DNA from: Patescibacteria group bacterium
GTDB taxonomy: Bacteria > Patescibacteriota > Microgenomatia > UM-FILTER-40-11
Direction of reading: 5' to 3'
DNA: 26,223 bases
Assembly: GCA_023473205.1 (NCBI GenBank)
Contig: JAMCYY010000040.1
Span: forward strand, 1 to 26,223
Shown here: positions 79-24,954 of the stretch, piece after piece
Numbering within the stretch: position 1 is the first letter of the stretch
Layout: every line of letters starts with the position of its first letter
Position numbers and translations under genes: made by a program
Notes under the pieces: model-generated
Databases searched by the model: none
What the model was told of the DNA's origin: nothing
What the model saw: only the letters and a program-made list of their open reading frames with translations

Positions 79-87
79 TGTTAACAT
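79..87 (+). promoter_or_regulatory. Putative extended -10 element (TGtTAACAT) for def, leaderless geometry
   Basis: TAACAT at 82..87 with TG at 79..80; ATG follows 6 nt later at 94; no Shine-Dalgarno. Confidence 0.5.
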
Positions 88-93
88 AGCGTT

Positions 94-675
94 ATGGTTA
101 AAGATACTCTTCAAGCCGGTGATTCGCGATTAAAAGCTTCAAATCAAAAAGTGACTGATGTCAATGATTCAAAAGTCAAACAAGTAATTGTTGATTTAGT
201 GGAAACAATGAAAGCTAACGAACTTGTTGGCATGGCCGCTCCTCAAATTGGGGAAAATTATCAAATTATTATTACTGAGCCTCGGCAAACAAAAACCAGG
301 TCAGCTGATCAAGCAGATGAACTCCGTGTTTATATCAATCCAAAAATCATTCACTTCTCAGAAGAAAAATCGACCATTTATGAGGGTTGTGGGAGTGTTG
401 CTAAGGGAACCTTATTTGGTCCGGTTATTAGGCCAAAAGAAATTACAATTGAAGCTTTAGACAAAAATGGCCAAAGATTCGAACTTACTTGTGATGGGCT
501 TTTGGCCAGAGTAATTCAACATGAGTATGACCATCTTTCTGGAATTGAATTTACTGAAAAGATTGCAGATTATCGTCTTTTAAAGGACATAGATTTTTAT
601 ATGAAAGATATAAAAGGTTCCTCAGAACAAATTAATGCTTCAGTAATTACTAAGAAAGTCTGTAAAAAATTTTAA
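94..675 (+). CDS. def: Peptide deformylase (divergent motifs)
   Basis: Motifs VGMAAPQIG, EGCGS (metal-ligand Cys) and QHEYDHLSG (HExDH). Confidence 0.9.
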   Translation: MVKDTLQAGDSRLKASNQKVTDVNDSKVKQVIVDLVETMKANELVGMAAPQIGENYQIIITEPRQTKTRSADQADELRVYINPKIIHFSEEKSTIYEGCGSVAKGTLFGPVIRPKEITIEALDKNGQRFELTCDGLLARVIQHEYDHLSGIEFTEKIADYRLLKDIDFYMKDIKGSSEQINASVITKKVCKKF

Positions 676-729
676 AAAAATTTTTTTGAGGTTTAATAAA
701 GTTATTTATTTCATAAAATTACTAGTAAG

Positions 730-770
730 GGAGGTGTGAAGCTATAACACCTTCCAGGTGTAAACTTAAA
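730..770 (+). repeat. 41-bp dispersed palindromic repeat, copy 2
   Basis: GGAGGTGTGAAGCTATAACACCTTCCAGGTGTAAACTTAAA; 39/41 identical to copy 1. Confidence 0.95.
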
Positions 771-771
771 G

Positions 772-800
772 TTGTTATTTTAAAATCTAAGATGTAGAAT
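772..800 (+). promoter_or_regulatory. Putative sigma70 promoter TTGTTA-N17-TAGAAT, 7 nt before ATG 808
   Basis: Hexamers at 772..777 and 795..800 with a 17-nt spacer. Confidence 0.55.
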
Positions 801-807
801 TTGGTTT

Positions 808-1023
808 ATGTCATTAAGAAATGAACAAGGGTATAAGGGGACTGATGCCAGTGTAGGAGCTGATCAATTTGTTGTTGATGCTGGGCTAGCTAGTCGAAGA
901 GTTCCAAATGAAGAAAAAAAAGGAAAAGAGGTAGAAAAAGAACTTGATGGACAAGATGGAGAGGGGAAAAGTTCACGACCATTTACATGCTTTAGAAGGA
1001 GAAGAAGTTCGAGTTTTAGATAA
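808..1023 (+). CDS. Small, highly charged hypothetical protein (71 aa)
   Basis: Fills the def-lexA gap without overlap and has its own promoter-like signal; no family recognised. Confidence 0.55.
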   Translation: MSLRNEQGYKGTDASVGADQFVVDAGLASRRVPNEEKKGKEVEKELDGQDGEGKSSRPFTCFRRRRSSSFR

Positions 1024-1034
1024 AGTTACAGAAG

Positions 1035-1649
1035 TTAAAACTTCCTAATGACTCCCACGACTTTGCCTTGAATTTTAACATCGGTTACATAAATTGGTTG
1101 CATTTTGGCATTAGCCGGAGCTAGTTTAATCCTAGTTGCTTCTTTAAAGTAACGTTTTAAAGTCGCTAAACCATTTTCTAAAAGGGCAACCACAATGTCT
1201 CCGTTTTTTGCTTCTGCTTGTTCTTCTACAACCACAAAGTCGCCATCTAAAATTCCTTCTTCAATCATGGACTCACCTTTTACCTGCAAAACAAATGCCC
1301 TTTTTCGGCCAGAAAGCATTCCCGGGGCAACATGAATTGTCGCATTTGGGTCAGTGTGCGGTTCAATTGGCAAGCCTGCGGCAATAAAGCCTAAGATAGG
1401 TAATTCTACTCCTTTGGTAATTTCACCTAGTTTTTTATCAACAATTTCAATTCCGCGAACCGCGCCTTCAAATTTTTTGATTAACTTTTTTTTGGCCATT
1501 GTTTCCAAGTGTTCATGGACAGTGGCTAAAGAAGAAACTCCCAAAGCTTCAGCAATTTGTTGCAAAGTCGGTGAATAGCCATTTTTTTGAATATATTGAC
1601 TGATAAAGTCCAGAATTTGTTTTTGACGTTTATAGATTGTAACTGGCAT
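1035..1649 (-). CDS. lexA: SOS repressor LexA
   Basis: N-terminal winged HTH (PTLQQIAEALGVSSLATVHEHL), Ala-Gly cleavage site (IAAGLP), S24 catalytic Ser (VKGESM) and Lys (TLKR). Confidence 0.97.
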   Translation of the reverse strand: MPVTIYKRQKQILDFISQYIQKNGYSPTLQQIAEALGVSSLATVHEHLETMAKKKLIKKFEGAVRGIEIVDKKLGEITKGVELPILGFIAAGLPIEPHTDPNATIHVAPGMLSGRKRAFVLQVKGESMIEEGILDGDFVVVEEQAEAKNGDIVVALLENGLATLKRYFKEATRIKLAPANAKMQPIYVTDVKIQGKVVGVIRKF

Positions 1650-1827
1650 TGTTATTTTTTCATCTAAGGTTTGGATTTACGCTGATTAGGCACTATTCAA
1701 ATCTCAGATGACCTTCATTTTTTTGATGCGTCCGCAAATTTTGTGAAACTATATTTTTATATTTTGTCTCAGTGATAATTGCAATCTTTAAAAATCTGTT
1801 TGAATATGTTTTATACTTCTATTATTT

Positions 1828-1857
1828 AGAATACGCCAAAGAAAACCCGAATGTCAA
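1828..1857 (-). promoter_or_regulatory. Putative lexA promoter TTGACA-N18-TATTCT
   Basis: Consensus -35 at 1857..1852 and TATTCT at 1833..1828 on the minus strand, about 180 nt upstream of the lexA ATG. Confidence 0.55.
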
Positions 1858-1926
1858 GGAGTAAAATAAATTAACAATGAGTTTCGATTACAAACAACCC
1901 CTCTGGCAGAATGGTGACCATTTAGT

Positions 1927-1932
1927 TATTAT
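1927..1932 (+). promoter_or_regulatory. Putative -10 (TATTAT) 6 nt before GTG 1939
   Basis: Leaderless geometry; no SD; -35 poor. Confidence 0.4.
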
Positions 1933-1938
1933 TGAATT

Positions 1939-3774
1939 GTGACCAAAAAAATTATTTATAACTTCTTATTAACGGTATTCTTTTTTTTGTTTTCCAGCCA
2001 ATCTGCTTGGGCTAATGATTTTGCCTCTTTTTACAAAACTACTTATGAATTTGCCCAAAACGGGGAAGCTACTGTTTTTCAAGAAATTTCTTTAGTTAAC
2101 CAGACGGCAGATTTTTATGTTTCAGAATATGCTTTATCAATAGTCGGCGGTCAAGTTTATAATGTCGAAGCTTATGACAAGATAGGCGCCCTTCGGGTTA
2201 AAACTACCCAAAAAGAAAAGACAGTCATCCTCTCAACTGCTTTTAATGAAAAAATTGTTGGTAAAGGGCAAATGCTTTCCTTTATTTTAAAATATAAAGT
2301 CCGTGATTTAGCTAAAAAAGAAGGTAATCTTTGGCAGATTTCATTACCTAAGTTAGCAAATTACCAGGATATTGAGGAATATAATGTTGATTTAAAAATT
2401 CCTGGTGAATTTGGCCGGATTGCCTTTGTTAATCCCAGTCCCCGAAAAGAAGAGATGAATGAAAATTTTACTCTTCTTTCTTTTAAAAAAGACGACCTGA
2501 TCAAATATGGGGTTTTAGTTTCTTTGGGCCAATATCAAACTTTTGACTTTAACCTTTATTATGATTTGGTTAACCCCACGGACAAAGAGGTAATTGAAAA
2601 AATAACCATTCCGCCAGATACTCCTTATCAAACAGTTTTTTTTGGAAATATCTCACCCCTGCCTTTGCAAGTTAGTCTTGATGAAGATGGCAACTGGTTT
2701 GCAGATTTTCTTCTTGCTCCTAATCAAAAGCTAAAAGTAGAGGTTGCCGGACAAGCAGATATCTTTGGCCGCCCTAAAACAAACACAACTTTTGATTTTA
2801 ATGGAAATCCAAATGATTATTTAGAGCCGACTAAGTACTGGGAAACGCTTTCTCCTGAAATTTCTGAAAAAGCAAAAGAACTAAAATCGCCGGAAAAAAT
2901 TTTTGATTTTGTGGCCAAAACATTAAATTATCAGTATGACAATCTTGGCCAAGGGCTTCGCCAAGGAGCAGTTGCCGCCTTAAAAAATCCTGATCAAGCA
3001 GTTTGTTCTGAATTTACTGACCTTTTTATTGCCCTTTGCCGGGCAGCTGGGATTCCTGCGAGGGAACTGGAAGGCTTTGCTTATACTGATAATCCAAAGT
3101 TAAACAATCTTTCTTTGGAAAATGATCTTTTGCATTCCTGGCCAGAATATTATGATAAAATCCAAAAACAGTGGCTGATGGTTGACCCGACTTGGGCCAA
3201 TACCACTGGCGGCTTGGATTATTTCAATAAGTTTGATCTTAACCATTTTGTTTTTGTCATTCACGGCAAAAATGATGCTTTCCCTTATCCACCTGGTTCT
3301 TACCGCGAAAAAAATTCTTCAAACCGCCAAATTTTTGTTTCTATGAGCAAAGAAGCAGTAACTTCGAGACAAAAAATCCTGGCAGTGGAAGAACTTAATC
3401 CCGGAAATATCTGGTCCTTAAAAGGAAACTTAGCTGAAGCAAAAATCCGCAACTTAAGTGGTTTTGCCATCTATAATTTAAAGCTTTTTTCTGAGGATGG
3501 AAAAGTTACCCCGTCTTCTTGGCAATACCCTGTTGTTTTGCCTTTTTCTGTTTTTGAACAAAGATTTAACATCAGTCCTAAGGATAACCTGACTGATTAT
3601 TCTCTAAATCTTAATTTTACTGCCGATGACCAAACAATATCCCTGAGATTTAAAGTTTTTTCACTTTTGCAAAGGGGACTTTTGTTAGGGTCGGTCATGC
3701 TTATTATTTTGATGATATTTATTTTGCGTTCTTTCCGAAAGCATAACTTGCAAAGCAAAACTAACCAATGCTAA
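1939..3774 (+). CDS. Exported, C-terminally anchored transglutaminase-like (Cys-His-Asp) protein
   Basis: Signal peptide ending AWA; CSEFTDLFIALCRAAGIPAR, HSWPEYY and VDPTW match the transglutaminase-like triad; C-terminal TM helix plus basic tail. Confidence 0.88.
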   Translation: MTKKIIYNFLLTVFFFLFSSQSAWANDFASFYKTTYEFAQNGEATVFQEISLVNQTADFYVSEYALSIVGGQVYNVEAYDKIGALRVKTTQKEKTVILSTAFNEKIVGKGQMLSFILKYKVRDLAKKEGNLWQISLPKLANYQDIEEYNVDLKIPGEFGRIAFVNPSPRKEEMNENFTLLSFKKDDLIKYGVLVSLGQYQTFDFNLYYDLVNPTDKEVIEKITIPPDTPYQTVFFGNISPLPLQVSLDEDGNWFADFLLAPNQKLKVEVAGQADIFGRPKTNTTFDFNGNPNDYLEPTKYWETLSPEISEKAKELKSPEKIFDFVAKTLNYQYDNLGQGLRQGAVAALKNPDQAVCSEFTDLFIALCRAAGIPARELEGFAYTDNPKLNNLSLENDLLHSWPEYYDKIQKQWLMVDPTWANTTGGLDYFNKFDLNHFVFVIHGKNDAFPYPPGSYREKNSSNRQIFVSMSKEAVTSRQKILAVEELNPGNIWSLKGNLAEAKIRNLSGFAIYNLKLFSEDGKVTPSSWQYPVVLPFSVFEQRFNISPKDNLTDYSLNLNFTADDQTISLRFKVFSLLQRGLLLGSVMLIILMIFILRSFRKHNLQSKTNQC

Positions 3775-3783
3775 AGTAAGATA

Positions 3784-4185
3784 ATGAAAAATTTTTTAAG
3801 GCGAATTTTTCTTAATTTTCTTTCACTTTGGTTAATTGGTAATATTACCCAAAGTGTAAATTATAATGGAAACCTTTTAGTCTTATTTTGGGCATCTCTT
3901 TTCCTGACAATTTTCAACCTTCTTATTAAGCCAATTCTAAATCTTCTTTTGATGCCCATTAATTTAATTACCTTAGGAGCTTTCCGTTGGGTAATTAACG
4001 TTTTAGTCCTGCTGGCTGTCTTAATTGCTGTCGAAGGATTTAAGGTTGTGGGTTTTACTTTTACCGGATTCACCATTGCTGGATTTGTCGTGCCTAAAAT
4101 TACTCTCTCTTTCTTTTGGGCCTTAGTTTTGGTATCATTCATGATAGAAATTTTCAATGGTATTTTTGGTTGGCTTTTTGAATAA
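3784..4185 (+). CDS. 4-TM 'phage holin family' (YvlD/superfamily IV-like) membrane protein
   Basis: Hydrophobic 133 aa with family-typical IKPILNLLLMPINLITLGAFRWVIN. Confidence 0.8.
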   Translation: MKNFLRRIFLNFLSLWLIGNITQSVNYNGNLLVLFWASLFLTIFNLLIKPILNLLLMPINLITLGAFRWVINVLVLLAVLIAVEGFKVVGFTFTGFTIAGFVVPKITLSFFWALVLVSFMIEIFNGIFGWLFE

Positions 4186-4403
4186 TGAAGACCATAATTT
4201 TAGCTCTACAAATAATTTTAAGTATCGCCTTGATCGGCTTAATCATCATTCAATCTAAAGGAGTGGGTTTAAGTGGGCCTTTTGGTGGTAGATTAGGTAC
4301 CTATTCAACCAAAAGGGGAGTGGAAAAGGCGGTTTCTAATTTGACCATTATTGTGGCTGTCCTTTTCTTCTTTTCTTCACTGGCCCAACTTTGGATAAAG
4401 TAA
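4185..4403 (+). CDS. secG: Preprotein translocase subunit SecG
   Basis: 72 aa, two TM segments, IIIQSKGVGLSGPFGG loop and TKRGVEK motif; start overlaps the upstream stop. Confidence 0.9.
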   Translation: MKTIILALQIILSIALIGLIIIQSKGVGLSGPFGGRLGTYSTKRGVEKAVSNLTIIVAVLFFFSSLAQLWIK

Positions 4404-4408
4404 AAAAA

Positions 4409-5737
4409 ATGAGTTTAACAAAAAGACTTCGTTTTATTTATCGTTTTTTAACGGCAGTTGTCAAAAAACAATTTTTGACGGTTATTTTAGGGTTATTTCT
4501 AGGCGTTTGCTTTTTTTTCTTTCTCCCCCGTTTAATGAAATACTTGCCTTTGCCCAAAACACTTTTAAAAATTGGCCTTGTTGGCCAGCCCACAGTCAGT
4601 GATTTGCCTGAACTTGTCCTTAAAGATATTTCTTACGGCTTAACTAAGGTTTCTTCTAAAGGTGAACCCTTACCGGGTTTAGCCACCAGCTGGGATGCTA
4701 CTGATCAAGGTAAAACTTACATTTTTAAGATTAATGACCAAGGGGCCACTTGGCATGACGGCACTTCCTTTTCTGTTAAAGATATTAATTACAATTTCAA
4801 AGACATCTCTTTTTCCTTTAATGGAAATGAATTAACTTTTGTCCTCAAAGATGCCTTTTCTCCTTTACCTGTCGTTCTTTCCCGTCCTCTTTTTAAAAAA
4901 GGGTTAATCGGTTTGGGTGATTATAAGGTTAAAAAAATTGATAAAAATAATAAATTTATTAAGGGGATTTATTTAAATTCCCAAAAAAACGAGATGCCTA
5001 ATAAATACTATCGCTTTTATAATACGGAAAGTGAGTTAAAAACTGCCTTTAACTTAGGCGAGGTCAATATTCTTGAGAATTTGTTTGATTTAAAAGGATT
5101 AGCCCTTGGCCCAAAAGTTGAAGTGAAAGAAAACTTAAGAAAAGATGCTTATTTAGGGCTTTTTTTGGATACCAGCCGTCCGCCTTTTTCCAGCAAATCC
5201 TATCGTCAGGCTTTAGCTTATGCCATTCCTAAAGAGACTGGCGAGAAGCGTTCTTTTGGGCCTTTAAACCCTGATTCTTGGGCTTATAACCCGGATGTTA
5301 AACCTTATGCAAAAGATATTGCCCATGCTAAACAGCTTTTAGAAAAAGAAGGAGGAATAGAAAATACCAAAATAAAGATTGCTACCTTTCTTGCCTATGA
5401 AGAGATGGCTAATTTGATTAAAGAAAGTTGGGCGGAAATTGGCATTGATTCTGAAGTACAAATAATTTCTGCGATTCCTGACCAGTTTGATGTTTTGCTC
5501 CTAGCCAGGGAAGTTCCCGAAGACCCGGACCAATATTACTTTTGGCACTCAACCCAAGAAGGAAATTTAGCCAATTTTAAAAGTTTGCGTATTGATAAGC
5601 TTTTAGAAGACGGACGGACAACTCTTTCGCGTGAAGAAAGAAAAAATATTTATTTTGATTTTCAAAGATATTTAGTGGAAGAGTCGCCTGTTATCTTTTT
5701 AACCCACCCGGTAACATATACAGTAGAAAGGAAATAA
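4409..5737 (+). CDS. Family 5 (OppA/DppA-like) solute-binding protein with N-terminal TM anchor
   Basis: PGLATSW, TWHDGTSFSVKD, YRQALAYAI, IDKLLEDGR and RKNIYFDFQR motifs. ATG 4409 preferred over TTG 4391, which overlaps secG. Confidence 0.85.
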   Translation: MSLTKRLRFIYRFLTAVVKKQFLTVILGLFLGVCFFFFLPRLMKYLPLPKTLLKIGLVGQPTVSDLPELVLKDISYGLTKVSSKGEPLPGLATSWDATDQGKTYIFKINDQGATWHDGTSFSVKDINYNFKDISFSFNGNELTFVLKDAFSPLPVVLSRPLFKKGLIGLGDYKVKKIDKNNKFIKGIYLNSQKNEMPNKYYRFYNTESELKTAFNLGEVNILENLFDLKGLALGPKVEVKENLRKDAYLGLFLDTSRPPFSSKSYRQALAYAIPKETGEKRSFGPLNPDSWAYNPDVKPYAKDIAHAKQLLEKEGGIENTKIKIATFLAYEEMANLIKESWAEIGIDSEVQIISAIPDQFDVLLLAREVPEDPDQYYFWHSTQEGNLANFKSLRIDKLLEDGRTTLSREERKNIYFDFQRYLVEESPVIFLTHPVTYTVERK

Positions 5738-5782
5738 TTGTTATCTCGCTATTTTGTTATATTGTTATCTTATTCTAAAAGG

Positions 5783-5824
5783 TGTTAAAATCATACGCAT
5801 CATTTAAATATCTTTTTAAGGAGG
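5783..5824 (+). promoter_or_regulatory. Extended -10 (TGtTAAAAT) and Shine-Dalgarno (AAGGAGG) for eno
   Basis: TAAAAT at 5786..5791 with TG at 5783..5784; AAGGAGG at 5818..5824, 4 nt before the ATG. Confidence 0.6.
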
Positions 5825-5828
5825 AACG

Positions 5829-7088
5829 ATGAAAATTGTTGAGGTTCATGCTCGGGAAATTTTAGATTCCAAAGGGGTGCCCACTGTTGAGGCAGAAGTA
5901 ACTTTGGAAGATGGAACCAAGGCCATGGGTGGAGTTCCTTCTGGCGCTTCTACGGGTGCAGCTGAAGTTTTGGAACTTCGGGACGGAGATAAATCAAGAT
6001 ATTTTGGTAAAGGAGTTTTAAAAGCAGTGGCCAATGTTAATGGCCCAATTAAAGATGCCTTAGTTGGTCAGGATGCCTGTGATCAACGAGCTATTGATCA
6101 GACAATGATTAGTTTAGATGGAACCGATAATAAATCTAAATTAGGTGGCAATGCCACTTGCGGCGTTTCAATGGCAATTTGCCGGGCAGCCGCTCGGTCT
6201 CAAAAAATACCGCTTTATGAATATTTTGGTAAATTATCTGGCAACACTAATTTTCAATTGCCCCAACCTTTAGTTTTAGTTTTAGAGGGTGGTAAACATG
6301 GGAATTGGTCAACTGATTGCCAGGAATATTTTATTATTCCCAAAAGAGAAGTTTTTCCAACTATTAGTGAAAGTCTTCGGGTTGGTGCAGAAATTTTCCA
6401 TGCCTTAGAAAAACTGCTTTCAGAAAAAGGTTACGCCACTGGAGTCGGATTTGAAGGCGCTTTTATGCCCAAAGAAATGAAATCCAATGAAGAGGCATTA
6501 CAAATTTTAGTTGAGGCCACAGAAAAAGCTGGTTACAAACTTCCTGATCAAATTGTCTTGGGAGTTGACGGTGCAGCATCCGAATTTTATCAAGATGGAA
6601 GATATGTTTTAAAAAGTGAGGGTGGAAAAGTATTGGAAAGCGGTGAATGGTTAGAAACTTTAGTAGGTTGGTCTAGTAAATATCCAATTTGGTCGATGGA
6701 AGATATTTTTGCCGAAGAAGATTGGAAATCTTGGGTTGAGTTTACCAAAAGAGTTGGTGATCATATCCAAGTTGTTGGTGATGACTTACTCACCACCAAT
6801 ATCAAGCGGATTCAAAAAGGCATTGATTTGAAAGCAGTTAACAGCGTTCTCATTAAGCTTAACCAAATTGGTACAGTTTCGGAAACGATTGATGCGATCT
6901 TACTTTCTCATAAAGCAGGATTTACAACGATGATTTCCCACCGTGGTGGAGAAACTAATGACGATATGATTGCTGACTTGTGTGTTGGCTCAGGCAGTTG
7001 GCAATCCAAATTTGGTGGTCCAGATAGAGGTGAAAGAGTGGCCAAATATAATCGGTTACTGCGAATTGAGGAAAAACTATTAAAATAA
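5829..7088 (+). CDS. eno: Enolase (divergent)
   Basis: AREILDSKGVPTVE, PSGASTG, VDGAASEF, SMED, VVGDDL, LIKLNQIGT, SHR and AKYNRLLRIEE motifs. Confidence 0.96.
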   Translation: MKIVEVHAREILDSKGVPTVEAEVTLEDGTKAMGGVPSGASTGAAEVLELRDGDKSRYFGKGVLKAVANVNGPIKDALVGQDACDQRAIDQTMISLDGTDNKSKLGGNATCGVSMAICRAAARSQKIPLYEYFGKLSGNTNFQLPQPLVLVLEGGKHGNWSTDCQEYFIIPKREVFPTISESLRVGAEIFHALEKLLSEKGYATGVGFEGAFMPKEMKSNEEALQILVEATEKAGYKLPDQIVLGVDGAASEFYQDGRYVLKSEGGKVLESGEWLETLVGWSSKYPIWSMEDIFAEEDWKSWVEFTKRVGDHIQVVGDDLLTTNIKRIQKGIDLKAVNSVLIKLNQIGTVSETIDAILLSHKAGFTTMISHRGGETNDDMIADLCVGSGSWQSKFGGPDRGERVAKYNRLLRIEEKLLK

Positions 7089-8349: not shown

Positions 8350-8390
8350 TTTAGGTTTACACCTGGAAGGTGTTATAGCTTCACACCTCC
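8350..8390 (-). repeat. 41-bp dispersed palindromic repeat, copy 3 (inverted)
   Basis: Reverse complement reads GGAGGTGTGAAGCTATAACACCTTCCAGGTGTAAACCTAAA, one mismatch to each of copies 1 and 2. Confidence 0.95.
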
Positions 8391-8421
8391 AACCGAATAG
8401 AACCTTTAAAAGCTAAATGCG

Positions 8422-8450
8422 TTGACTGCCATCTGTTTCAGGGCTACAAT
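8422..8450 (+). promoter_or_regulatory. sigma70 promoter TTGACT-N17-TACAAT, 7 nt before ATG 8458
   Basis: Near-consensus hexamers at 8422..8427 and 8445..8450 with optimal spacing. The ORF track's TTG start is the -35 box itself. Confidence 0.75.
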
Positions 8451-8457
8451 TGCTTTG

Positions 8458-9102
8458 ATGAAGAAAATAAATTTAGCGACGCTGGCTTTAATTGTTTTGG
8501 CCTTTGTCTTAGGCTTTTATTTTTATCCCAAACTGCCGGAAATGATAGCTTCGCATTGGGGAATAAACGGTGAAGTTAATGGCTATAGTTCAAAGCTGTT
8601 AGGATCTTTTTTAATGCCTGTTATTTCGCTTGCTTTATACTTGCTATTTCTTTTTTTGCCTAAGATTGATCCTTTAAAGGAAAATATCAAAAAATTTCGG
8701 TCTTATTTTGAAACTTTTATTTTTCTAATAATTCTTTTTCTCTTTTACCTTTATTTGCTTTCAATTTTCTGGAATCTAGGCTATCGATTTAACTTTGGTT
8801 CAATGCTTTCACCAGCGTTTGCCCTTTTGTTCTATTCAGCGGGAGTCTTAATTGGCAAAGCGAAAAGAAACTGGTTCATTGGTATTCGGACGCCTTGGAC
8901 TTTAAGTAGTGACCGAGTTTGGAATCGGACTCACGAGCTTGGAGGTAAGCTTTTTAAAGCTATAGCCCTAATTTCTCTTTTAGGCATTTTTTTTCCACAA
9001 ATAGCTTTTTATTTAGTACTTGCTCCGGTTTTAGCAATGACTGTTTATCTTTTTGTTTTTTCGTATCAAGAATATAAGAAAATTGAAAAATCCCAAAATT
9101 AA
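8458..9102 (+). CDS. SdpI/DUF1648-family multi-pass membrane protein
   Basis: YPKLPEMIASHWGINGEVNG (DUF1648-like) and KRNWFIGIRTPWTLSSDRVWNRTH (SdpI-like). Start moved to ATG 8458. Confidence 0.88.
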   Translation: MKKINLATLALIVLAFVLGFYFYPKLPEMIASHWGINGEVNGYSSKLLGSFLMPVISLALYLLFLFLPKIDPLKENIKKFRSYFETFIFLIILFLFYLYLLSIFWNLGYRFNFGSMLSPAFALLFYSAGVLIGKAKRNWFIGIRTPWTLSSDRVWNRTHELGGKLFKAIALISLLGIFFPQIAFYLVLAPVLAMTVYLFVFSYQEYKKIEKSQN

Positions 9103-11837: not shown

Positions 11838-12308
11838 TTATTCTTTGGAAAATTTAGGAGAACCTTTAACCAAACGAGCAGTGTTAACAATAATCCTTGT
11901 TTCACCATCTTCACCTTCAATTTCACTGGCACCGGTGAGTTTTTGATATTGTAATAAATAATCAGAAAGGGTATCTTGTAATTCTTTTACTTCTGACCTT
12001 AAATCATCAACTTTTTGGGTGATTGACTGGAGGGTTGGATTTTTCAGGATTTGCTGCTTAGTTTCTGCTTTTATCTTAATGGCTTCTTTGGCTTTTTCTT
12101 CGTGTTCTTTATAAATTGCATCGCTTTCAAAAGAATCATCTAAGAGTTCTTTTTGTTTTTTTAGCTCTTGTTTTATGGACTCAACCCTTGCCATGTAGGT
12201 TTTAATTAAATTTTCAAGGTTAAGAAAATCAGCGGTAGCGGCATTAATCTCCAAAGACGGTTGAATTAAAGGGCTGGTATTAGTGTTATCAACATTGGTG
12301 TCGTCCAT
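11838..12308 (-). CDS. Hypothetical coiled-coil protein (156 aa)
   Basis: Long E/K/L/Q-rich heptad stretches; first gene of a tightly packed three-gene run. Confidence 0.8.
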   Translation of the reverse strand: MDDTNVDNTNTSPLIQPSLEINAATADFLNLENLIKTYMARVESIKQELKKQKELLDDSFESDAIYKEHEEKAKEAIKIKAETKQQILKNPTLQSITQKVDDLRSEVKELQDTLSDYLLQYQKLTGASEIEGEDGETRIIVNTARLVKGSPKFSKE

Positions 12309-12314
12309 ATGCTA

Positions 12315-12344
12315 AGCATACTAAATAAGTAAACCTAAGGTCAA
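12315..12344 (-). promoter_or_regulatory. Promoter TTGACC-N18-TATGCT, 6 nt before ATG 12308
   Basis: -35 at 12344..12339 and -10 at 12320..12315 on the minus strand. Confidence 0.65.
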
Positions 12345-12445
12345 GAGGGATTTTAAAATCAATTCTTACCTTTCCCTTACCTTTCTTTTTCTCTTGCCAT
12401 ATTTTTTAGAAATACCTTAAAGAAATCATTAATAAATTTTTAAAA

Positions 12446-13960
12446 ATGATTTTTTTAAGAAATAGGTTAAAGGAAAATTTTGAAGAAGGATTTAACTTTA
12501 GAGGTACAAATTTTATGACTTACAATAACCTTTCTTTTAGAGAAAGCGCTTTTTTTAATTTTAGTCTTTGGCAAAAGATAGTTTTAATAACATTAATGAC
12601 AGTAATTCTTTTAGGTATAGTCTTCCGGTTACAATTATTTTTGGTTATTTCAATTGCTTTATTGACTTTTTTATATTTTGCCAATTTAATTTTTGATTTT
12701 TTCTTAATTTTCAGCAGTTTTTGGAAGAATTCCGAGTTGTTTATTACCAATAATGAAATCAGGTATCTTGATGAAGATCTGTTGCCAGTTTATACGGTTT
12801 TTTGCCCCTTATATAAAGAATGGGAAGTCATTAAACAATTTATTAGCGCCATTTCGCAACTGGACTACCCAAAAGATAAATTACAGGCTTTGCTTTTGCT
12901 TGAAGAAAATGACAAACGGACAATTGAAGAAGCCAGAAGAATAACTTTACCGGAATATTTTCAGATTGTCATTGTTCCTGATTCATTACCAAAAACAAAA
13001 CCCAAAGCTCTAAATTTTGGTTTAAAAATGGCTAAAGGGAAGTTATCAGTTATTTATGATGCTGAAGATATCCCTGATAAAGACCAGTTAAAAAAAGCCT
13101 ATCTTGCTTTTCAAAAAGTAGATAAAAAGACCATTTGCATCCAGGCAAAATTGAATTATTATAATCCGCGGCAAAATCTGCTTACTAAACTTTTTACCGC
13201 TGAATATTGTCTTTGGTTTGACCTTATCCTTCCGGGTCTCCAGTCAATTGAGGCACCTATACCTTTAGGTGGAACTTCAAACCATTTTTTGGTTTCTGAA
13301 TTAAAAAAACTTCAAGGATGGGATCCTTTTAATGTGACCGAGGATTGTGATTTAGGAATTCGTTTAGCTAAATATGGTTATAAAACAAAAATAATTAATT
13401 CAACAACCTTTGAGGAGGCAAACAGCAAACCCCTTAATTGGTACCGTCAAAGAAGCCGTTGGATAAAAGGCTATATTCAAACATATTTCGTCCATATGAG
13501 GGATTTAAAAAAATTTTTTAACCATAATAAAAAAAGTAATTTTTTTATTTTTCAATTGGTGGTTGGTGGTAAGGTCTTAAGTATCTTTATTAATCCTTTA
13601 ATGTGGCTTCTAACATTATCCTATTTTTTATTCCGTCCAACCTTGGGAAAATTTATTGAACCACTTTTTCCTCCTTTTGTTTTGTATTTGGGGGTTATTT
13701 GTTTAGTCATTGGCAATTTTCTTTATCTTTTTTATTACATGATTGGCTGTGCTAAAAGAAATTACTTTGATTTAGTAAAATATGTCTTTTTTATTCCTTT
13801 TTATTGGTTAGGAATGAGCATCTCTGGTTGGAAATCATTGTATGAAATTATTGCCAAGCCCCATTATTGGGCAAAAACCGTGCACGGCTTTCATCTAAAC
13901 AAAGCAAATGAGACGGTTGAGAAAAAAATTGCTATCACGGAGGTTATTGTCGAATCATAA
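12446..13960 (+). CDS. Processive family 2 glycosyltransferase (cellulose-synthase-like catalytic motifs)
   Basis: PLYKE, KPKALN, YDAED (DxD), TED and QRSRW (QxxRW) motifs; TM helices at both ends. Start uncertain (12446 or 12515). Confidence 0.92.
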   Translation: MIFLRNRLKENFEEGFNFRGTNFMTYNNLSFRESAFFNFSLWQKIVLITLMTVILLGIVFRLQLFLVISIALLTFLYFANLIFDFFLIFSSFWKNSELFITNNEIRYLDEDLLPVYTVFCPLYKEWEVIKQFISAISQLDYPKDKLQALLLLEENDKRTIEEARRITLPEYFQIVIVPDSLPKTKPKALNFGLKMAKGKLSVIYDAEDIPDKDQLKKAYLAFQKVDKKTICIQAKLNYYNPRQNLLTKLFTAEYCLWFDLILPGLQSIEAPIPLGGTSNHFLVSELKKLQGWDPFNVTEDCDLGIRLAKYGYKTKIINSTTFEEANSKPLNWYRQRSRWIKGYIQTYFVHMRDLKKFFNHNKKSNFFIFQLVVGGKVLSIFINPLMWLLTLSYFLFRPTLGKFIEPLFPPFVLYLGVICLVIGNFLYLFYYMIGCAKRNYFDLVKYVFFIPFYWLGMSISGWKSLYEIIAKPHYWAKTVHGFHLNKANETVEKKIAITEVIVES

Positions 13961-15574: not shown

Positions 15575-16006
15575 TTAATCCTTGGGACATTTAAACATTT
15601 GTGGCAGACAATAAAAATTACGATTAAAAACACAATAATTGGTGTTAGGGGATAAATAATCACCCCAGGACGGATAACCATTTTTAACAATTACGCCATT
15701 ATTAGGACAAGTTTCCGCTTTTGTAGGAATCCAAAGGGACAAAATGCCGCTGTTCCCTTGGGAAGGTGAGGCGCCGCAAAATGTTTGTAAAAATATACCG
15801 CAGTTGAGTTTTTGCACTTTATCAAAGCCCTGGTAAATTTCATTTTTTCCCGGAATGGCATGGACTCCTGATTCATAACAGGCGACTAAGGATTTGCTGC
15901 TGTTATTTAAGGAACAACTCTTGGTTGAAATTGCCATTGCTGGCTTAGACAGTAAAAAAAACAAACCCAAAAAAGCAATAGGAATTAACGTGATTTTCGT
16001 TTTCAT
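15575..16006 (-). CDS. Secreted cysteine-rich protein of unknown function (143 aa)
   Basis: Start reassigned to ATG 16006 because of a strong SD. Signal peptide ending AMA; 8 Cys in the 118-aa mature part. Confidence 0.8.
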   Translation of the reverse strand: MKTKITLIPIAFLGLFFLLSKPAMAISTKSCSLNNSSKSLVACYESGVHAIPGKNEIYQGFDKVQKLNCGIFLQTFCGASPSQGNSGILSLWIPTKAETCPNNGVIVKNGYPSWGDYLSPNTNYCVFNRNFYCLPQMFKCPKD

Positions 16007-16013
16007 GAATGTT

Positions 16014-16023
16014 TCACCTCCTT
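16014..16023 (-). promoter_or_regulatory. Strong Shine-Dalgarno AAGGAGGTGA
   Basis: Ten-base match to the canonical anti-SD, 7 nt upstream of ATG 16006. Confidence 0.8.
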
Positions 16024-17373: not shown

Positions 17374-17382
17374 ATCTATTTG

Positions 17383-17391
17383 TGTTATTAT
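17383..17391 (+). promoter_or_regulatory. Extended -10 (TGtTATTAT), 7 nt before ATG 17399
   Basis: TATTAT at 17386..17391 with TG at 17383..17384. Confidence 0.5.
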
Positions 17392-17398
17392 TTACTTA

Positions 17399-18052
17399 AT
17401 GGCAGAACAGATTTTCAAAGGCATAATTAAGTCAAGGATTATTGAAGTAAAATTTGCCATTTCAGGCAAAGTGGTCATTGTCTGTAAGAAAAAAGGGGAC
17501 AATGTTAAAAAAGGCGAACTCTTAGCAACTTTAGACAAAAAATCACTTCAGATGGAACTTGACCGGCAGCTTTCAGACTTTGAAAAAGTTAAGGCAGAAT
17601 TTGAGATTTTTAATTTGCAAAAAGGTGAACCCAAAGATGATATTACTAAATATCTAAAAGCCCAAAAGCAGGCAGAACTTAACCGAAGTATTAAAGAAGT
17701 TGAACTGGCCCAAGAAAAAGTTGAGATGGCTGACCTTTTTTCTCCAATTGAAGGTCTTATTCTGGATGAGAGTGGACTTATCCCGGGGATTTTCATCACA
17801 CCTTCGGGAAATCCAATAAAAATTCTTGAAAGCAACCATTATTTTTTTGAGATGGAAATTGAACAAAAAGATTTGCCTCAATTTTTAACCCCTAATAATT
17901 TAACCATGCAAATTTTCGGAATTGACAAAACTATCCAAGGCCAAAGTAAGTCAGTTTTTCCCAATGAAAAAGGAAAATTTATAGTTGAGGCTGAACTGTC
18001 AAACAGCAGCGGTCTTCTTTATGGCCTTTCCGGTGAAGCTACAATAATTTAA
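17399..18052 (+). CDS. HlyD/membrane-fusion (efflux adaptor)-like protein lacking an N-terminal anchor
   Basis: Lipoyl-like halves (SGKVVIVCKKKGDNVKKGELLATLD; LFSPIEG) around a helical hairpin. Start moved to 17399 because 17309 overlaps the GH gene. Confidence 0.78.
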   Translation: MAEQIFKGIIKSRIIEVKFAISGKVVIVCKKKGDNVKKGELLATLDKKSLQMELDRQLSDFEKVKAEFEIFNLQKGEPKDDITKYLKAQKQAELNRSIKEVELAQEKVEMADLFSPIEGLILDESGLIPGIFITPSGNPIKILESNHYFFEMEIEQKDLPQFLTPNNLTMQIFGIDKTIQGQSKSVFPNEKGKFIVEAELSNSSGLLYGLSGEATII

Positions 18053-18071
18053 TTTATCTTAGAACTATATT

Positions 18072-19611: not shown

Positions 19612-19681
19612 TAAGGCTTTTTACCCGGTTAACAACAAAGTTTGAAGAAATCAAAGTAAGAAAATGAAAATAACTATTGGA

Positions 19682-20023: not shown

Positions 20024-20947
20024 TTATTTTTTCGCCAAAAATTCATTTTCAACTGGTTGTTGCAGTGGACCTAAAGGAACTTTATTTTCCGGATCATCAA
20101 CAAAATATAAAACAACCGGGCCTTTTTGCATGCCCACATTAAGGCCTAAATAAGCCATAACTTCCGGCGAGCCGCCAAAATGTTTGCCTGTCCACCAAGA
20201 AGGACCAGCATCAGCAATAACCGCAACAATTGTTTTGCCGTTATTTGGATTAACCACTACTACTTTACGGTATTTATACCAATCCCTCAAGTAACGGAAA
20301 TTAGTATACCAATCAGGTAAATAAAGTGTTTGGACGGCAACATAATATTTTTCTTTTTGGATTAAATCTTTGGTTAAATTTTTTTTAGTTCGGGAAAAAT
20401 AACCCCAAGCGCCTAATCCTGGGGTAATGCCTTCTCTTAGGTTTTCATCATGCTGCGAAAGAGTATCACCGGGAAAACGGGGTAAATGTTGCTCGGCGCC
20501 AATTAGTCCATAAAGATGGTTTAAGCGAGTACCTCCGGAAGAAGGAACGGCATTAATGCCCCAAACCCGAAAGAGTAAATGGCTAATCTCAGCTTCTTCA
20601 TCAGTTGTTAAATTTTGTATTTTTTGGGGCAGAATTTTCTTTAACTCGCTGGTTATTGTCTGGTTTTCATCATTAGTGGCTGACTCACGGGAAATAATTA
20701 AGTCAGGAGTAATTTTTTGAGGAAGATTTAATTCCGGTGAACCTAAAAGAAGGGAACCGGCTAAAGCTCCGGAAGCTAAGAGCTTAGCCGCTTGGGAACG
20801 TATTTTACCCGGACTTAAAAGTTTATTTTTACTTAATATTTCAACCGCATGAGGATGCTTTTCTAAAAGCTCTTGGTCTGCAAGCAAATGCTTATATCTA
20901 AGTTTGGAATATAAAAGCTCAGAGTCAATTCTTTGTCTTTTGGGCAT
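20024..20947 (-). CDS. Hypothetical protein with a C-terminal RlpA-like double-psi beta-barrel motif
   Basis: VVVVNPNNGKTIVAVIADAGP resembles the RlpA/DPBB consensus; hydrophobic segment near the N-terminus. Start moved to ATG 20947. Confidence 0.75.
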   Translation of the reverse strand: MPKRQRIDSELLYSKLRYKHLLADQELLEKHPHAVEILSKNKLLSPGKIRSQAAKLLASGALAGSLLLGSPELNLPQKITPDLIISRESATNDENQTITSELKKILPQKIQNLTTDEEAEISHLLFRVWGINAVPSSGGTRLNHLYGLIGAEQHLPRFPGDTLSQHDENLREGITPGLGAWGYFSRTKKNLTKDLIQKEKYYVAVQTLYLPDWYTNFRYLRDWYKYRKVVVVNPNNGKTIVAVIADAGPSWWTGKHFGGSPEVMAYLGLNVGMQKGPVVLYFVDDPENKVPLGPLQQPVENEFLAKK

Positions 20948-20954
20948 TGAAAAT

Positions 20955-20960
20955 ATTATA
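20955..20960 (-). promoter_or_regulatory. Consensus -10 TATAAT, 7 nt before ATG 20947
   Basis: Perfect hexamer in leaderless geometry. Confidence 0.6.
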
Positions 20961-21001
20961 CAAAGAATAAGGAGCAATGAAAATGATTAGAAATCGTAGA
21001 T

Positions 21002-21592
21002 TCAGTTGTTAACAAAAGTCCTACCATCAGGAAGACGGCACTGCTCAGGAAAAGATTCCATAATTAAAAAACCAGCCGCTGCACATTCTTCAAAATTATT
21101 GATTCCGGCTAAAAGCTGGTCACATCTTTCTTTACTTGTCCAATTACTCATTGGCAGACATTTTTCCAGTTCTTCTTTTAAAGATATTTTCTTTGCCGGA
21201 AGGGAAATTATTTTTTCCCAAAACAGGCGTGAAATATTGAATTCTCCTTTTGCCAATTTAATTGCTTTTTTAAGCCCATACTGGCTAAGTCCTTTTTCTA
21301 AAGATTCTTTTGCCGGAATATTACCCGTGTAATATTTTTCCAAGACAGGTAAGGCTTGAGCGCTACCAAGTTGTCCAAGCGCCCAAATAGCGGAATTCCT
21401 TGAGTGAAAGTCATTTTTCGGATCATCAAGATAGAGAATTAAAGCAGAAGTACAATCACCGGGATATCTGTTTACCGCCTCTTCACAAGTACCTTTAACT
21501 TCTTTGCCAATAATGATGATCATGAGGAAAAAGGTGAAAAGGAAAAAAATGACTAAAGTGACTCCAAGCAAAGGCAGAAGATACTTTTTCAT
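21002..21592 (-). CDS. Membrane-anchored protein with a HEAT-like repeat and a small C-terminal Cys-pair module
   Basis: N-terminal TM; RNSAIWALGQLGSAQALPVLEK; C-terminal FEECAAAGFLIMESFPEQCRLPDGRTF. Confidence 0.75.
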   Translation of the reverse strand: MKKYLLPLLGVTLVIFFLFTFFLMIIIIGKEVKGTCEEAVNRYPGDCTSALILYLDDPKNDFHSRNSAIWALGQLGSAQALPVLEKYYTGNIPAKESLEKGLSQYGLKKAIKLAKGEFNISRLFWEKIISLPAKKISLKEELEKCLPMSNWTSKERCDQLLAGINNFEECAAAGFLIMESFPEQCRLPDGRTFVNN

Positions 21593-21599
21593 TAAGATT

Positions 21600-21608
21600 A
21601 TCTTAACA
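21600..21608 (-). promoter_or_regulatory. Extended -10 (TGtTAAGAT), 7 nt before ATG 21592
   Basis: TAAGAT at 21605..21600, embedded in overlapping palindromes. Confidence 0.5.
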
Positions 21609-21683
21609 TAAGATAAAAATTGTCTAAAAATATTTGATAACCATCAAGAAACATATTTTAATTAATCTTCTTTACAAATCAGC

Positions 21684-22448: not shown

Positions 22449-22624
22449 AGCTATTATTTATACTAATTTTATATTACAACAATTGTCATCTAGATTCTAG
22501 GTAATGATAATTGGTCATTCTTCTTGATCTTGTTGGTAAGATCTGTCACACTATTTTTGCAGGACTTACCCCTCCTTTAATAACAGAATCGAACATTTGG
22601 CTTTAATAAACTGTATGTTTGAGA

Positions 22625-22630
22625 TAGAAT
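22625..22630 (+). promoter_or_regulatory. -10 TAGAAT, 7 nt before ATG 22638
   Basis: Leaderless geometry; no SD. Confidence 0.5.
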
Positions 22631-22637
22631 ATAAGAA

Positions 22638-23459
22638 ATGAGGATAATTAAAAAACTAACCAAGTATTTATTAATTACTCTGCTAATTTTGATTTTTGCC
22701 TCTCCTTTATGGATTAAGATTATTCCGACTAAACATATCTCATTTCTGACTGGTAAGTTACCAGTAGTCGATAGTGTTGTTTGTAATTTTTCAACCAAGG
22801 TTAGTGGAGAATCGATGGGTTCTCTGATTCCTTCTGGAAGCTCGATTGTAATAAACCGTTGTTTTGAGGACGAAGATTTAAAGGAAGGAACCGTAGTTTT
22901 GTTTAATGACAATGCAAACTTACGTTTTGGTGTCGTTCGCCATGTCTTACCTCTTGATCCTGTAGTATATAAAGTTTCTGATGAGAAAGCCCCAGAGTTG
23001 CTTCTTGACGTAATAAAAGAAGAAATTACAGGTATAACAAAAAGTATTGATATGAGCAAATCCAAATATCAAGCCAAACGGAAAACCGAATCTTTTATTC
23101 TTAATGCCAATGAATTTTTAACCGATTTATACTTAGCCAAAATACCCCATGGCATGGGCATAGAAGTATCTACTGTTGAAAAAACAACCTCTTTTTCTCG
23201 ACAGGAAGATAAATTTTGTTCTGTTATAGTTCCCAAGAAAAATTTAACCGCAGTTGCTACTGAAATTACAGACATTAAAACACAAAAAATAATTTCTCAG
23301 GGAAATAACATTGTTTTCAATGTCAGCTCAAAGCCAAATATCAATTGTAAGGATTTTGGTTCAAGTCAAGGCATGCTCAATCTAGATCCAGGCAGTTATC
23401 GATATAAATTTTTGATTAACCATCAGGTGTTGGCGAATATTCAGTTTGAGGTAAGATAA
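22638..23459 (+). CDS. Membrane-anchored hypothetical protein with a degenerate S24/S26 peptidase-like segment
   Basis: N-terminal TM; VSGESM...LKEGTVVLF pattern. Confidence 0.7.
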   Translation: MRIIKKLTKYLLITLLILIFASPLWIKIIPTKHISFLTGKLPVVDSVVCNFSTKVSGESMGSLIPSGSSIVINRCFEDEDLKEGTVVLFNDNANLRFGVVRHVLPLDPVVYKVSDEKAPELLLDVIKEEITGITKSIDMSKSKYQAKRKTESFILNANEFLTDLYLAKIPHGMGIEVSTVEKTTSFSRQEDKFCSVIVPKKNLTAVATEITDIKTQKIISQGNNIVFNVSSKPNINCKDFGSSQGMLNLDPGSYRYKFLINHQVLANIQFEVR

Positions 23460-23473
23460 AATAAAGAAGGACT

Positions 23474-23761
23474 ATGGACCAAAAAATTACCGATTATATT
23501 AATAAACAAAAATCCCCCCAAAAAGAAATTTGCCATAAGCTAAGGAGTATCATTCTTAAAACCCTTTCGAACGCAGGGGAAGAAATGAAGTGGGGTGTTC
23601 CCGCTTTCGTTGGGGGCAAATTATATATCGTTGCCCTAAAGGATCATGTCAACTTTGGTTATAACGATGGCAGTAAAAAAATGAAACATGTCGAAATAAA
23701 ATCGTTGGACCAAATCGATTCTAAAAAAATAATTGAGTTAATCAAATCGACTAAAAAATAA
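23474..23761 (+). CDS. DUF1801 (YdhG-like) protein
   Basis: ITDYI...KLRSII...EEMKWGVPAF pattern; SD-like AAGG upstream. Confidence 0.8.
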   Translation: MDQKITDYINKQKSPQKEICHKLRSIILKTLSNAGEEMKWGVPAFVGGKLYIVALKDHVNFGYNDGSKKMKHVEIKSLDQIDSKKIIELIKSTKK

Positions 23762-23764
23762 TCT

Positions 23765-23929
23765 ATGCCAATCACCCTTATCTTGTTACTGATTTACACT
23801 ATTGCCATTGTTGTCGCCGTTATCGGCATTGCAAAGAAGATAAAAATCTTGAAGATAATCTCAGTCTTTTTGTTTTTAGCTGGAACTGTCTTGACGGCTG
23901 CTGTTGCTTTCGCTCTGAAAAATATGTAG
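23765..23929 (+). CDS. Small 2-TM membrane protein (54 aa), absent from the ORF track
   Basis: ATG 3 nt after the DUF1801 stop. MPITLILLLIYTIAIVVAVIGIAKKIKILKIISVFLFLAGTVLTAAVAFALKNM: two hydrophobic helices split by a basic loop. Confidence 0.7.
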   Translation: MPITLILLLIYTIAIVVAVIGIAKKIKILKIISVFLFLAGTVLTAAVAFALKNM

Positions 23930-23945
23930 GGCTAAAAATATAAAG

Positions 23946-23951
23946 TAAAAT
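23946..23951 (+). promoter_or_regulatory. -10 TAAAAT, 7 nt before ATG 23959
   Basis: Leaderless geometry, but in very A-rich context. Confidence 0.4.
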
Positions 23952-23958
23952 AAAGAAA

Positions 23959-24954
23959 ATGGAAAAATGGCTTGGTCATCTAAAATATAATCCTTTAATC
24001 CCTCTATCCGAGTGCAAAGATGAGGCACTTCACGCATTTGTCCAGCGTGATCTTTCGGATAAGGTTGTTTCAGTGGAGAGCTTATGGCAACTAACCGAGT
24101 CGCAAAAGATTCTAAGGAGACAACAGCCTAACGGTTCATGGAGATATCCTAATGTAAAAAAGAATATTCGCATACAAGAATATTACAATCAATATGAGAC
24201 ATTCAATAATTTGGGAATTTTGATTGAGGAATTCGGATTCAACAAAAATCACCCCGCTATTACCAAAGCGGCAGATTATTTTTTCTCATCTCAATCTAAA
24301 GAAGGAGATTTCAGGGGAATTTATGGCAACCAATACAGCCCCAATTATTCTGCGGGGATAGCTGAGTTACTTATTAAAGCGGGGTATACAGACGATGTCC
24401 ATGTCGAAAACTTGTTTAAGTGGCTTCTTTCTATCAGACAAAAAGATGGCGGTTGGGCAATACCATTTAGAACCCAGGGCTATGGAATTGGTGTCATTTG
24501 GGATCACTCAAAAACAATCCAACCAGATGTTTCAAAACCTTTCTCATATATGGTTACTGGAGTGGTGTTGCGAGCTTTTGCAGCACACCCAAGATACAGA
24601 AAATTAAAGGAGGCTCATCAAGCAGGAGAGTTACTTCTTTCGGGTGTGTTTAGGAAAGACCAATATCCTGATAGAGCTGGAGCCGAATACTGGTTACGAT
24701 TTTCATTTCCGTTTTGTTACACCGATTTAATTTCTGCTTTAGATAGCCTCTCCCTCTTAGGGTTTTCGTCACAAGTGCCAGAAATAGAAAAATCCCTGCA
24801 TTGGTTTGTGAAAAATCAGCAAAAAACTGGACTTTGGCAATTTAAGATAACAAGGGGTAAAAATAAAGATGTTATTGAGCTGTGGCTTGCATTGGCTGTG
24901 TGTAGGATATTTAGGAGATTTTATCTTAACAAGCATAATGAAAATGTATTATAA
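23959..24954 (+). CDS. Alpha/alpha-toroid protein of the prenyltransferase/squalene-cyclase repeat type
   Basis: Repeated QW-like motifs: QQPNGSW, QSKEGDF, RQKDGGW, QQKTGLW. Confidence 0.72.
   Translation: MEKWLGHLKYNPLIPLSECKDEALHAFVQRDLSDKVVSVESLWQLTESQKILRRQQPNGSWRYPNVKKNIRIQEYYNQYETFNNLGILIEEFGFNKNHPAITKAADYFFSSQSKEGDFRGIYGNQYSPNYSAGIAELLIKAGYTDDVHVENLFKWLLSIRQKDGGWAIPFRTQGYGIGVIWDHSKTIQPDVSKPFSYMVTGVVLRAFAAHPRYRKLKEAHQAGELLLSGVFRKDQYPDRAGAEYWLRFSFPFCYTDLISALDSLSLLGFSSQVPEIEKSLHWFVKNQQKTGLWQFKITRGKNKDVIELWLALAVCRIFRRFYLNKHNENVL

Follow-up and report, generated by a model that had tools for sequence, protein, structure and literature searches.

Why do ten start codons on one contig of an uncultured bacterium each follow a TANNNT hexamer (N, any base) at a distance of only 6 to 7 nucleotides (nt)? 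The window referred to here is the whole of this contig (C85; 26,223 bases). It belongs to a metagenome-assembled genome (MAG) of 755 kb that is split into 115 contigs, has a GC content of 37% and is about 60% complete, and the host is an ultra-small uncultured member of the Patescibacteria from a Shapirobacteria-type family. A first-pass annotation, made from the sequence of the window, had noticed the hexamers, read them as promoters that place the transcription start on the start codon, and proposed a genome-wide test of positional enrichment. We ran this test against controls and followed the sites into related genomes. Probably, the hexamers are the -10 boxes of ordinary sigma-70 (RpoD) promoters that end 6 to 7 nt before the start codon and would yield leaderless mRNAs. 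Because the -10 box lies so close, the predicted mRNA starts at the AUG and has no ribosome-binding leader. RNA polymerase would initiate at the first base of the start codon (ATG or GTG) or 1 to 2 nt ahead of it, and ribosomes would load directly on the 5'-terminal AUG without Shine-Dalgarno (SD) pairing. Where the transcripts begin and how ribosomes load onto them are both inferred from the geometry of the promoters.

A positional peak of predicted -10 boxes at first start codons

Genome-wide, 710 genes were called with a simple picker of open reading frames (ORFs) that uses codon usage and takes the first ATG, GTG or TTG as the start. We define the spacer as the number of nt between the end of the -10 hexamer and the start codon, and other spacers served as the control. 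The test gave a sharp peak of TANNNT at spacers 6 and 7. Its first base lies at -12 for 11% of the first starts and at -13 for 6 to 9%, and the hexamer is depleted at -11 and -10; the background is about 4% per position. Summed over the two spacers, 109 of 631 first starts carry the hexamer, where the control spacers yield about 44 (p 4e-18). The share is 30.5% for divergent genes, 16.5% for genes that lie 80 nt or more from the preceding gene on the same strand, and 10.4% for close-packed genes, against a background of 5 to 9%.

The raw count at spacer 6 is inflated, because longest-ORF starts are preceded by in-frame TAA and TAG codons, which are read as TA[AG]NNT at spacers 3, 6, 9 and 12. 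Three corrected measures were used: TAYNNT (Y, pyrimidine), which cannot be a stop codon; TATAAT with at most one mismatch; and the subset of genes with an unambiguous start. TAYNNT occurs 35 times at spacer 6, a roughly 4-fold enrichment over a control of about 9.5, and 15 times at spacer 7. The near-consensus TATAAT occurs 40 times at spacer 6 (6.7-fold) and 19 times at spacer 7, where about 6 are expected. Among first-in-unit genes that start with ATG and have their next candidate start at least 20 codons off, 34 of 109 carry the hexamer, where about 10 are expected. The identical pipeline gave no peak (3.4% versus 3.5%) and a clear SD signal in 150 kb of Escherichia coli K-12.

How widespread is the arrangement? 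The first-pass annotation had attributed it to roughly half of the genes that are first in their unit. This holds within the window but not genome-wide, where the raw share is 21 to 31% and the share net of chance about 12 to 22%; in raw numbers, 80 first starts match among about 382 putative unit heads (21%). From these counts we estimate that the leaderless-type arrangement is present at roughly 15 to 25% of unit heads, or some 60 to 90 genes including those with reassigned starts.

Promoter signatures at the boxes

The boxes at spacers 6 and 7 carry further features of promoters. The extended -10 element TGn precedes 33% of them, compared with 6.5% of the TANNNT hexamers elsewhere upstream, and 38% versus 20% have a hexamer 16 to 19 nt away that agrees with the -35 consensus at 4/6 or more positions. 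The aligned profile has T, T and G at -23 to -21, corresponding to the TTG of TTGACA with a 17-nt spacing, and T and G at -3/-2. A pyrimidine occupies position -1 in 84% of the spacer-6 sites versus 51% elsewhere, and the predicted +1 is the first base of the start codon, A or G; a pyrimidine at -1 followed by a purine at +1 is the usual preference at transcription starts. The start codons at the motif sites are biased to ATG (99 ATG, 7 GTG and 3 TTG; ATG 91% versus 71% elsewhere). Strict sites, with a box plus either TGn or a -35 match, number 61 compared with 9.2 at control spacers, and 86 compared with 13.8 when ATGs up to 50 codons downstream are allowed. Among box-carrying downstream ATG candidates, 20 of 45 have TGn, versus 6 of 86 deep within genes; therefore, some of the longest-ORF starts are too long. 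The primary sigma factor is encoded in the MAG, as a match to the RpoD_Cterm profile (G000:C39:9070-9777) scores 384.7 bits at a cut-off of 354.

Conservation of the arrangement among relatives

The relatives from the same family include Candidatus Shapirobacteria bacterium CG03_land_8_20_14_0_80_40_19 (G002), Patescibacteria group bacterium SMAG_U14133 (G003) and a further genome (G006); G008 represents another family of the same class. The peak at spacers 6 and 7 is also present in G003, G006 and G008 (17% versus 5 to 7%). In a Saccharibacteria genome (G153), 18 of 73 unit heads match at spacer 6, and the peak is weaker in genomes of Nomurabacteria (G156) and Dojkabacteria (G154); these last three genomes were sampled at 200 kb each.

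Orthologs of leaderless-type genes tend to be leaderless-type themselves. This is so for 7 of 16 in G006, compared with 15 of 99 orthologs of other genes, and for 6 of 15 in G003, compared with 5 of 54 (p about 0.01 each), so that the overall figures for same-family orthologs are 40 to 44% versus 9 to 15%. The leaderless state turns over gene by gene, and the phenomenon persists.

Individual sites of the window can be followed in the same way. The clearest is the gene at 12308, for which about 10 orthologs, drawn from several families within the class, have TTGAcc or TTGatt, a gap of 17 to 18 nt, often TGn, and TAtnnT 6 to 9 nt before a conserved ATG. For the sdpI-like gene, TANNNT stands at spacer 6 ahead of an ATG equivalent to 8458 in both orthologs of about 50% identity (G029 and G011). 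The gene at 1939 also starts with GTG in G001, together with a TTATTAT box at spacer 6, and in G004 with TACAAT at spacer 7. The def orthologs of G011, G002 and G018 have TGnTAnnAT 6 to 8 nt before the start, and those of G001 and G025 do not. A single ortholog (G006, 64% identity) represents the gene at 22638 and has TATTAT at spacer 7 ahead of the equivalent ATG. At 21592 the geometry is not kept in the orthologs of the gene.

Three of the ten starts had been reassigned in the first-pass annotation, in each case in agreement with homology. The clearest case is 17399, originally 17309, where the orthologs open at query residue 30 to 31 with 3 to 8 open codons upstream, which supports 17399 as the start; TANNNT is present at spacer 6 to 7 in two of four orthologs. 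For the ORF with the longest-ORF start at 20977, the frame of the G006 ortholog opens exactly at residue 11, which corresponds to 20947, and 6 of 14 orthologs have TANNNT 5 to 8 nt ahead of the equivalent ATG. The SdpI orthologs likewise open at the equivalent of 8458.

Weighing chance, artefact and short leaders

Several observations weigh against leaderless promoters as the explanation. The start set comes from a simple ORF caller and not from a validated annotation. In-frame stop codons contribute measurably, with TA[AG]NNT counts of 34, 26 and 27 at spacers 6, 9 and 12 compared with about 14 out of frame. A two-hexamer promoter scan of the AT-rich window does not rise above shuffles (39 versus 34.8 and 47 versus 38.1). 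Conservation fades outside the family: in G008, 5 of 18 orthologs of leaderless-type genes share the arrangement versus 12 of 77 for other genes, which is not significant, and in other classes the count is 0 of 15. Finally, a search of sequencing runs found the organism only in metagenome DNA runs from mine tailings, with word matches of 0.95 and 0.86; RNA runs matched solely via a related pyrophosphatase (PPase) protein.

Could the peak then be a by-product of AT-rich intergenic DNA combined with the stop-codon artefact of longest-ORF starts? The real inflation by in-frame stops, the failure of two-hexamer matches in the window to outnumber those in shuffles and a chance rate of about 4% per position would all fit this explanation. 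It does not account for the enrichment of TAYNNT and near-consensus TATAAT at spacer 6, nor for the peak at spacer 7, which is out of frame with stop codons. Furthermore, TGn, the -35 match, the pyrimidine at -1 and the ATG bias co-occur solely at spacers 6 to 7, E. coli has no peak, and the geometry is kept in orthologs. The corrected counts, the aligned profile, the unambiguous-start subset and the strict-site counts largely refute chance and artefact as the source of the peak, and we consider this explanation highly improbable. For a single site the evidence is weak, because the two-hexamer scan is not enriched over shuffles, even if 6 of the 10 sites exceed its threshold. The longest-ORF start rule used here would fail on high-GC genomes.

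A second possibility accepts the promoters as real and holds that many of the mRNAs have short leaders (1 to 5 nt or more) or use a downstream start codon, and are not strictly leaderless. The near-consensus TATAAT has a shoulder of 10, 8, 6 and 5 occurrences at spacers 8 to 11 over a background of 3.0, which suggests a class of 1- to 5-nt leaders beside the strictly leaderless starts. The box lies 8 to 9 nt from the start in some orthologs of 12308 and def, and spacer 7, present at 7 of the 10 window sites, could mean a 1-nt leader. However, the main peak lies at spacer 6, where +1 canonically falls relative to a -10 box, with the pyrimidine preference at -1 described above, and homology places the N termini at the predicted ATGs for def, 17399, 20947 and sdpI. 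In the literature on mycobacterial transcription start sites, leaders of up to 5 nt are conventionally classed as leaderless. We regard it as unlikely that many of these mRNAs have short leaders or use downstream starts.

Shine-Dalgarno pairing and other initiation routes

If some of the genes are leaderless, how are the others translated? The first-pass annotation had proposed two initiation modes. SD-led and leaderless-type genes do coexist in the window, and the three genes named as SD-led (eno, 16006 and 24974; Table 1) are correctly assigned, but the proposal is incomplete, since the majority of the genes have neither signal. A division into leaderless core genes and SD-led orphan genes does not fit the window either, as enolase is SD-led there. 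An SD 4-mer precedes about 15% of the genes and 24% of the operon-internal genes, about twice the control rate, and GGAGG is found 12 times before operon-internal genes, compared with 1.5. The excess of SD pairing energy over the control amounts to 4 to 8 percentage points versus about 25 in E. coli. Because SD words precede a minority of the genes and the pairing excess is this small, most genes lack an SD sequence as well as a leaderless promoter. The anti-SD sequence appears intact, as read from the 16S rRNA of relatives, which ends in GGATCACCTCCTTTCT; the 16S rRNA of the MAG itself was not assembled.

The weakness of SD pairing implies that some other translation signal must exist, and the TANNNT hexamer might be that signal: an AT-rich non-SD element on a leadered mRNA, in the style of group B of GeneMarkS-2, and not a promoter. 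Other classes of the Patescibacteria would provide a precedent. In the sampled genomes of Saccharibacteria, Dojkabacteria and Nomurabacteria (L201-L230) there is a second TANNNT peak, mostly TAAATT or TTAAAT, 14 to 15 nt upstream of the starts, and this peak includes operon-internal genes, with TANNNT at spacer 15 in 21 of 103 such genes in the Saccharibacteria. These genomes have no SD enrichment in the 200 kb sampled from each, and the TAAATT-type element looks like a non-SD ribosome-binding signal. The peak at 14 to 15 nt is absent from the genome studied here and from its family. The element at spacers 6 and 7 behaves differently from a translation signal. Close-packed operon-internal genes almost never have it; its raw share there is 10.4%, TAYNNT occurs 6 times at spacer 6 and 0 times at spacer 7, and it is accompanied by TGn and by the TTG of a -35 box at 17-nt spacing, which are contacts of RNA polymerase and not of the ribosome. 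A ribosome-binding role for the spacer-6/7 hexamer is therefore very unlikely in our view, and the sigma-70 promoter remains the preferred explanation.

Relatives encode just a short, four-domain S1-like protein of 372 to 427 amino acids (aa) that matches rpsA at about 17 to 343 (G003:C9:23081-24055, G008:C1:10835-11818 and G153:C3:56419-57504). Neither G006 nor this 60%-complete MAG yielded such a protein. The short S1 may be relevant to the translation of leadered mRNAs that lack an SD sequence.

The sites in the window

The window holds about 27 genes, among them def, lexA, secG, eno, gpmI and genes for an SdpI-like protein, a membrane H+-PPase and a cyclophilin; scans for tRNAs and Rfam families gave no match in the window. 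All ten hexamers described in the first-pass annotation were found at the spacers and on the strands given there (Table 1), and none of the ten starts has an SD word, again as described. The spacer is 7 nt at seven sites and 6 nt at 94, 1939 and 12308. TGn is present at 94, 17399 and 21592, and also at 3784, which is not among the ten; near-consensus -35 boxes occur at 8458 (TTGACT, 17 nt) and 12308 (TTGACC, 18 nt), and a perfect TATAAT at 20947. With the starts fixed to those of the longest ORFs, 8 of the 25 called genes of the window match, where 7 to 10% are expected (p 2e-4 to 2e-3); this count includes 3784 and 12446.

Table 1. Start codons in the window with a predicted -10 box 6 to 7 nt upstream, and three SD-led starts for contrast
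Gene	Position	Strand	Elements
def (peptide deformylase paralog)	79..96	+	TGt-TAACAT (82-87), 6-nt spacer, ATG 94; Pfam Pep_deformylase aligned from residue 4
ORF 808 (71 aa, no homologs)	772..810	+	TTGTTA (772-777)-17-TAGAAT (795-800), 7-nt spacer, ATG 808
Transglutaminase-like, head of 1939-5737 unit	1903..1941	+	CTGGCA-18-TATTAT (1927-1932), 6-nt spacer, GTG 1939
sdpI-like	8422..8460	+	TTGACT (8422-8427)-17-TACAAT (8445-8450), 7-nt spacer, ATG 8458
DUF4200-like, head of 12308-peptidylprolyl isomerase (PPIase)-H+-PPase unit	12306..12344	-	TTGACC (12344-12339)-18-TATGCT (12320-12315), 6-nt spacer, ATG 12308
HlyD-like	17383..17401	+	TGt-TATTAT (17386-17391), 7-nt spacer, ATG 17399 (moved from 17309)
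RlpA/DPBB-like	20945..20983	-	TTTTCA-17-TATAAT (20960-20955), 7-nt spacer, ATG 20947 (moved from TTG 20977)
HEAT-repeat protein	21590..21608	-	TGt-TAAGAT (21605-21600), 7-nt spacer, ATG 21592
273-aa protein	22603..22640	+	TTAATA-16-TAGAAT (22625-22630), 7-nt spacer, ATG 22638
Prenyltransferase/cyclase-like	23946..23961	+	TAAAAT (23946-23951), 7-nt spacer, ATG 23959
eno (SD-led contrast)	5818..5831	+	AAGGAGG (5818-5824), ATG 5829
Gene 16006 (SD-led contrast)	16004..16023	-	SD AAGGAGGTGA (16023-16014), ATG 16006
Gene 24974 (contrast)	24926..24976	+	Near-consensus promoter TTAACA-18-TATAAT (24926-24955) 18 nt before ATG 24974; SD-like AGAGGA (24963-24968) in predicted short leader

About two to three of the ten sites are expected to be chance matches. 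The weakest is 23959, which lacks TGn and has a best -35 match of 2/6, and for which no ortholog was found among 30 relatives; its box may be such a match. The status of ORF 808 as a gene is uncertain, because it has no ortholog among the same 30 relatives; its coding score per codon is 0.143, at about the 25th percentile of the called genes.

Leaderless initiation in other lineages

The leaderless arrangement is known from other phyla, and this genome adds a probable case from the Patescibacteria. In the classification of GeneMarkS-2, leaderless transcription defines group C, which consists mainly of Actinobacteria and Deinococcus-Thermus and in which 25 to 50% of the operons are leaderless and the remaining genes have a different signal (PMC6028130). 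As in group C, the positional peak is confined to unit heads, and the share estimated here reaches at most the lower limit of that range. Unlike this genome, group C members with the standard genetic code are almost entirely of high GC content. The code of the MAG is the standard one: long ORFs end in TAA (204), TGA (48) or TAG (40), that is, 48 of 292 end in TGA. A further difference is that the remaining genes of group C use SD sites, which are weakly enriched here.

The closest description of the geometry comes from Deinococcus-Thermus, where the "-10 region adjacent to ORF" pattern, in which a classical -10 box immediately precedes the coding sequence, gives leaderless mRNA (PMC12340547); in Deinococcus deserti, 47% of the mRNAs begin exactly at the start codon (PMC4007540). 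The Deinococcus cases are supported by differential RNA sequencing, reporters and proteogenomics, and the present one by sequence statistics and conservation. A leaderless arrangement has also been described for mycobacteria (PMC4633059). Low-GC members of group C have so far been recognized mainly among the Mollicutes, whose small genomes have 30 to 60% predicted leaderless transcripts (10.1101/2022.07.25.500264). They are likewise reduced and AT-rich, but they belong to an unrelated phylum and use code 4, whereas TGA is a stop codon in the genome studied here. None of the papers covered by our literature search describes leaderless initiation for the Patescibacteria, or Candidate Phyla Radiation (CPR).

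Are the Patescibacteria, with low GC content and the standard code, a third large bacterial lineage rich in leaderless genes? We would put this at slightly less than an even chance. In such a scenario, SD pairing would have been largely abandoned and the anti-SD retained in the lineage examined here, and the bulk of the genes would be leaderless or SD independent, with a TAAATT-like element about 15 nt upstream in some classes. There might be a link to the reduced ribosomes of these bacteria, with the short four-domain S1 seen here and a reported lack of uL1, bL9 and uL30; loss of the anti-SD itself has been reported solely for part of the Parcubacteria (PMC9297842). The question that follows, and that can be tested, is how genes with neither an SD sequence nor a leaderless start recruit ribosomes when the canonical anti-SD is kept.

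The arrangement also matters in practice. Gene callers that expect SD sequences will misplace starts in such genomes, and 3 of the 10 starts in the window had to be moved. Moreover, the sites provide a promoter model, TTGnnn, 17 nt, (TGn)TAtaaT, 6 to 7 nt, ATG, for an uncultured phylum without genetics, which is useful for predicting operons, for heterologous expression and for designing reporters in cultivable relatives such as TM7x.

Neighboring genes and minor observations

Two further starts of the window fit the geometry. The start at 3784 (3769-3786) has TGc-TAAAGT at spacer 6 and lies 9 nt past the upstream stop codon, and the start at 12446 (12433-12448) has TAAATT at spacer 7.

A repeat that contains a palindrome, ACACCTTCCAGGTGTAAAC, immediately precedes the -35 positions for both def (94) and ORF 808 (17-60 and 750-790 in the window). 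A copy resembling its reverse complement, CCTGGAAGGTGT..., is located ahead of the sdpI-like gene (about 8370-8400). This repeat could be an operator or a terminator common to these predicted leaderless units.

The eno gene (5829-7088) has an unusual set of relatives. The closest enolases, with 73 to 75% identity, include some from bins labelled Gammaproteobacteria, Pseudomonadales and Bathyarchaeia, which are probably mislabelled public bins; the other homologs are from Patescibacteria (CPR) bins. The identity of eno is 58 to 59% to genomes from other classes of the phylum versus 41 to 54% to genomes of the same class, which hints at a lateral exchange of eno inside the phylum.

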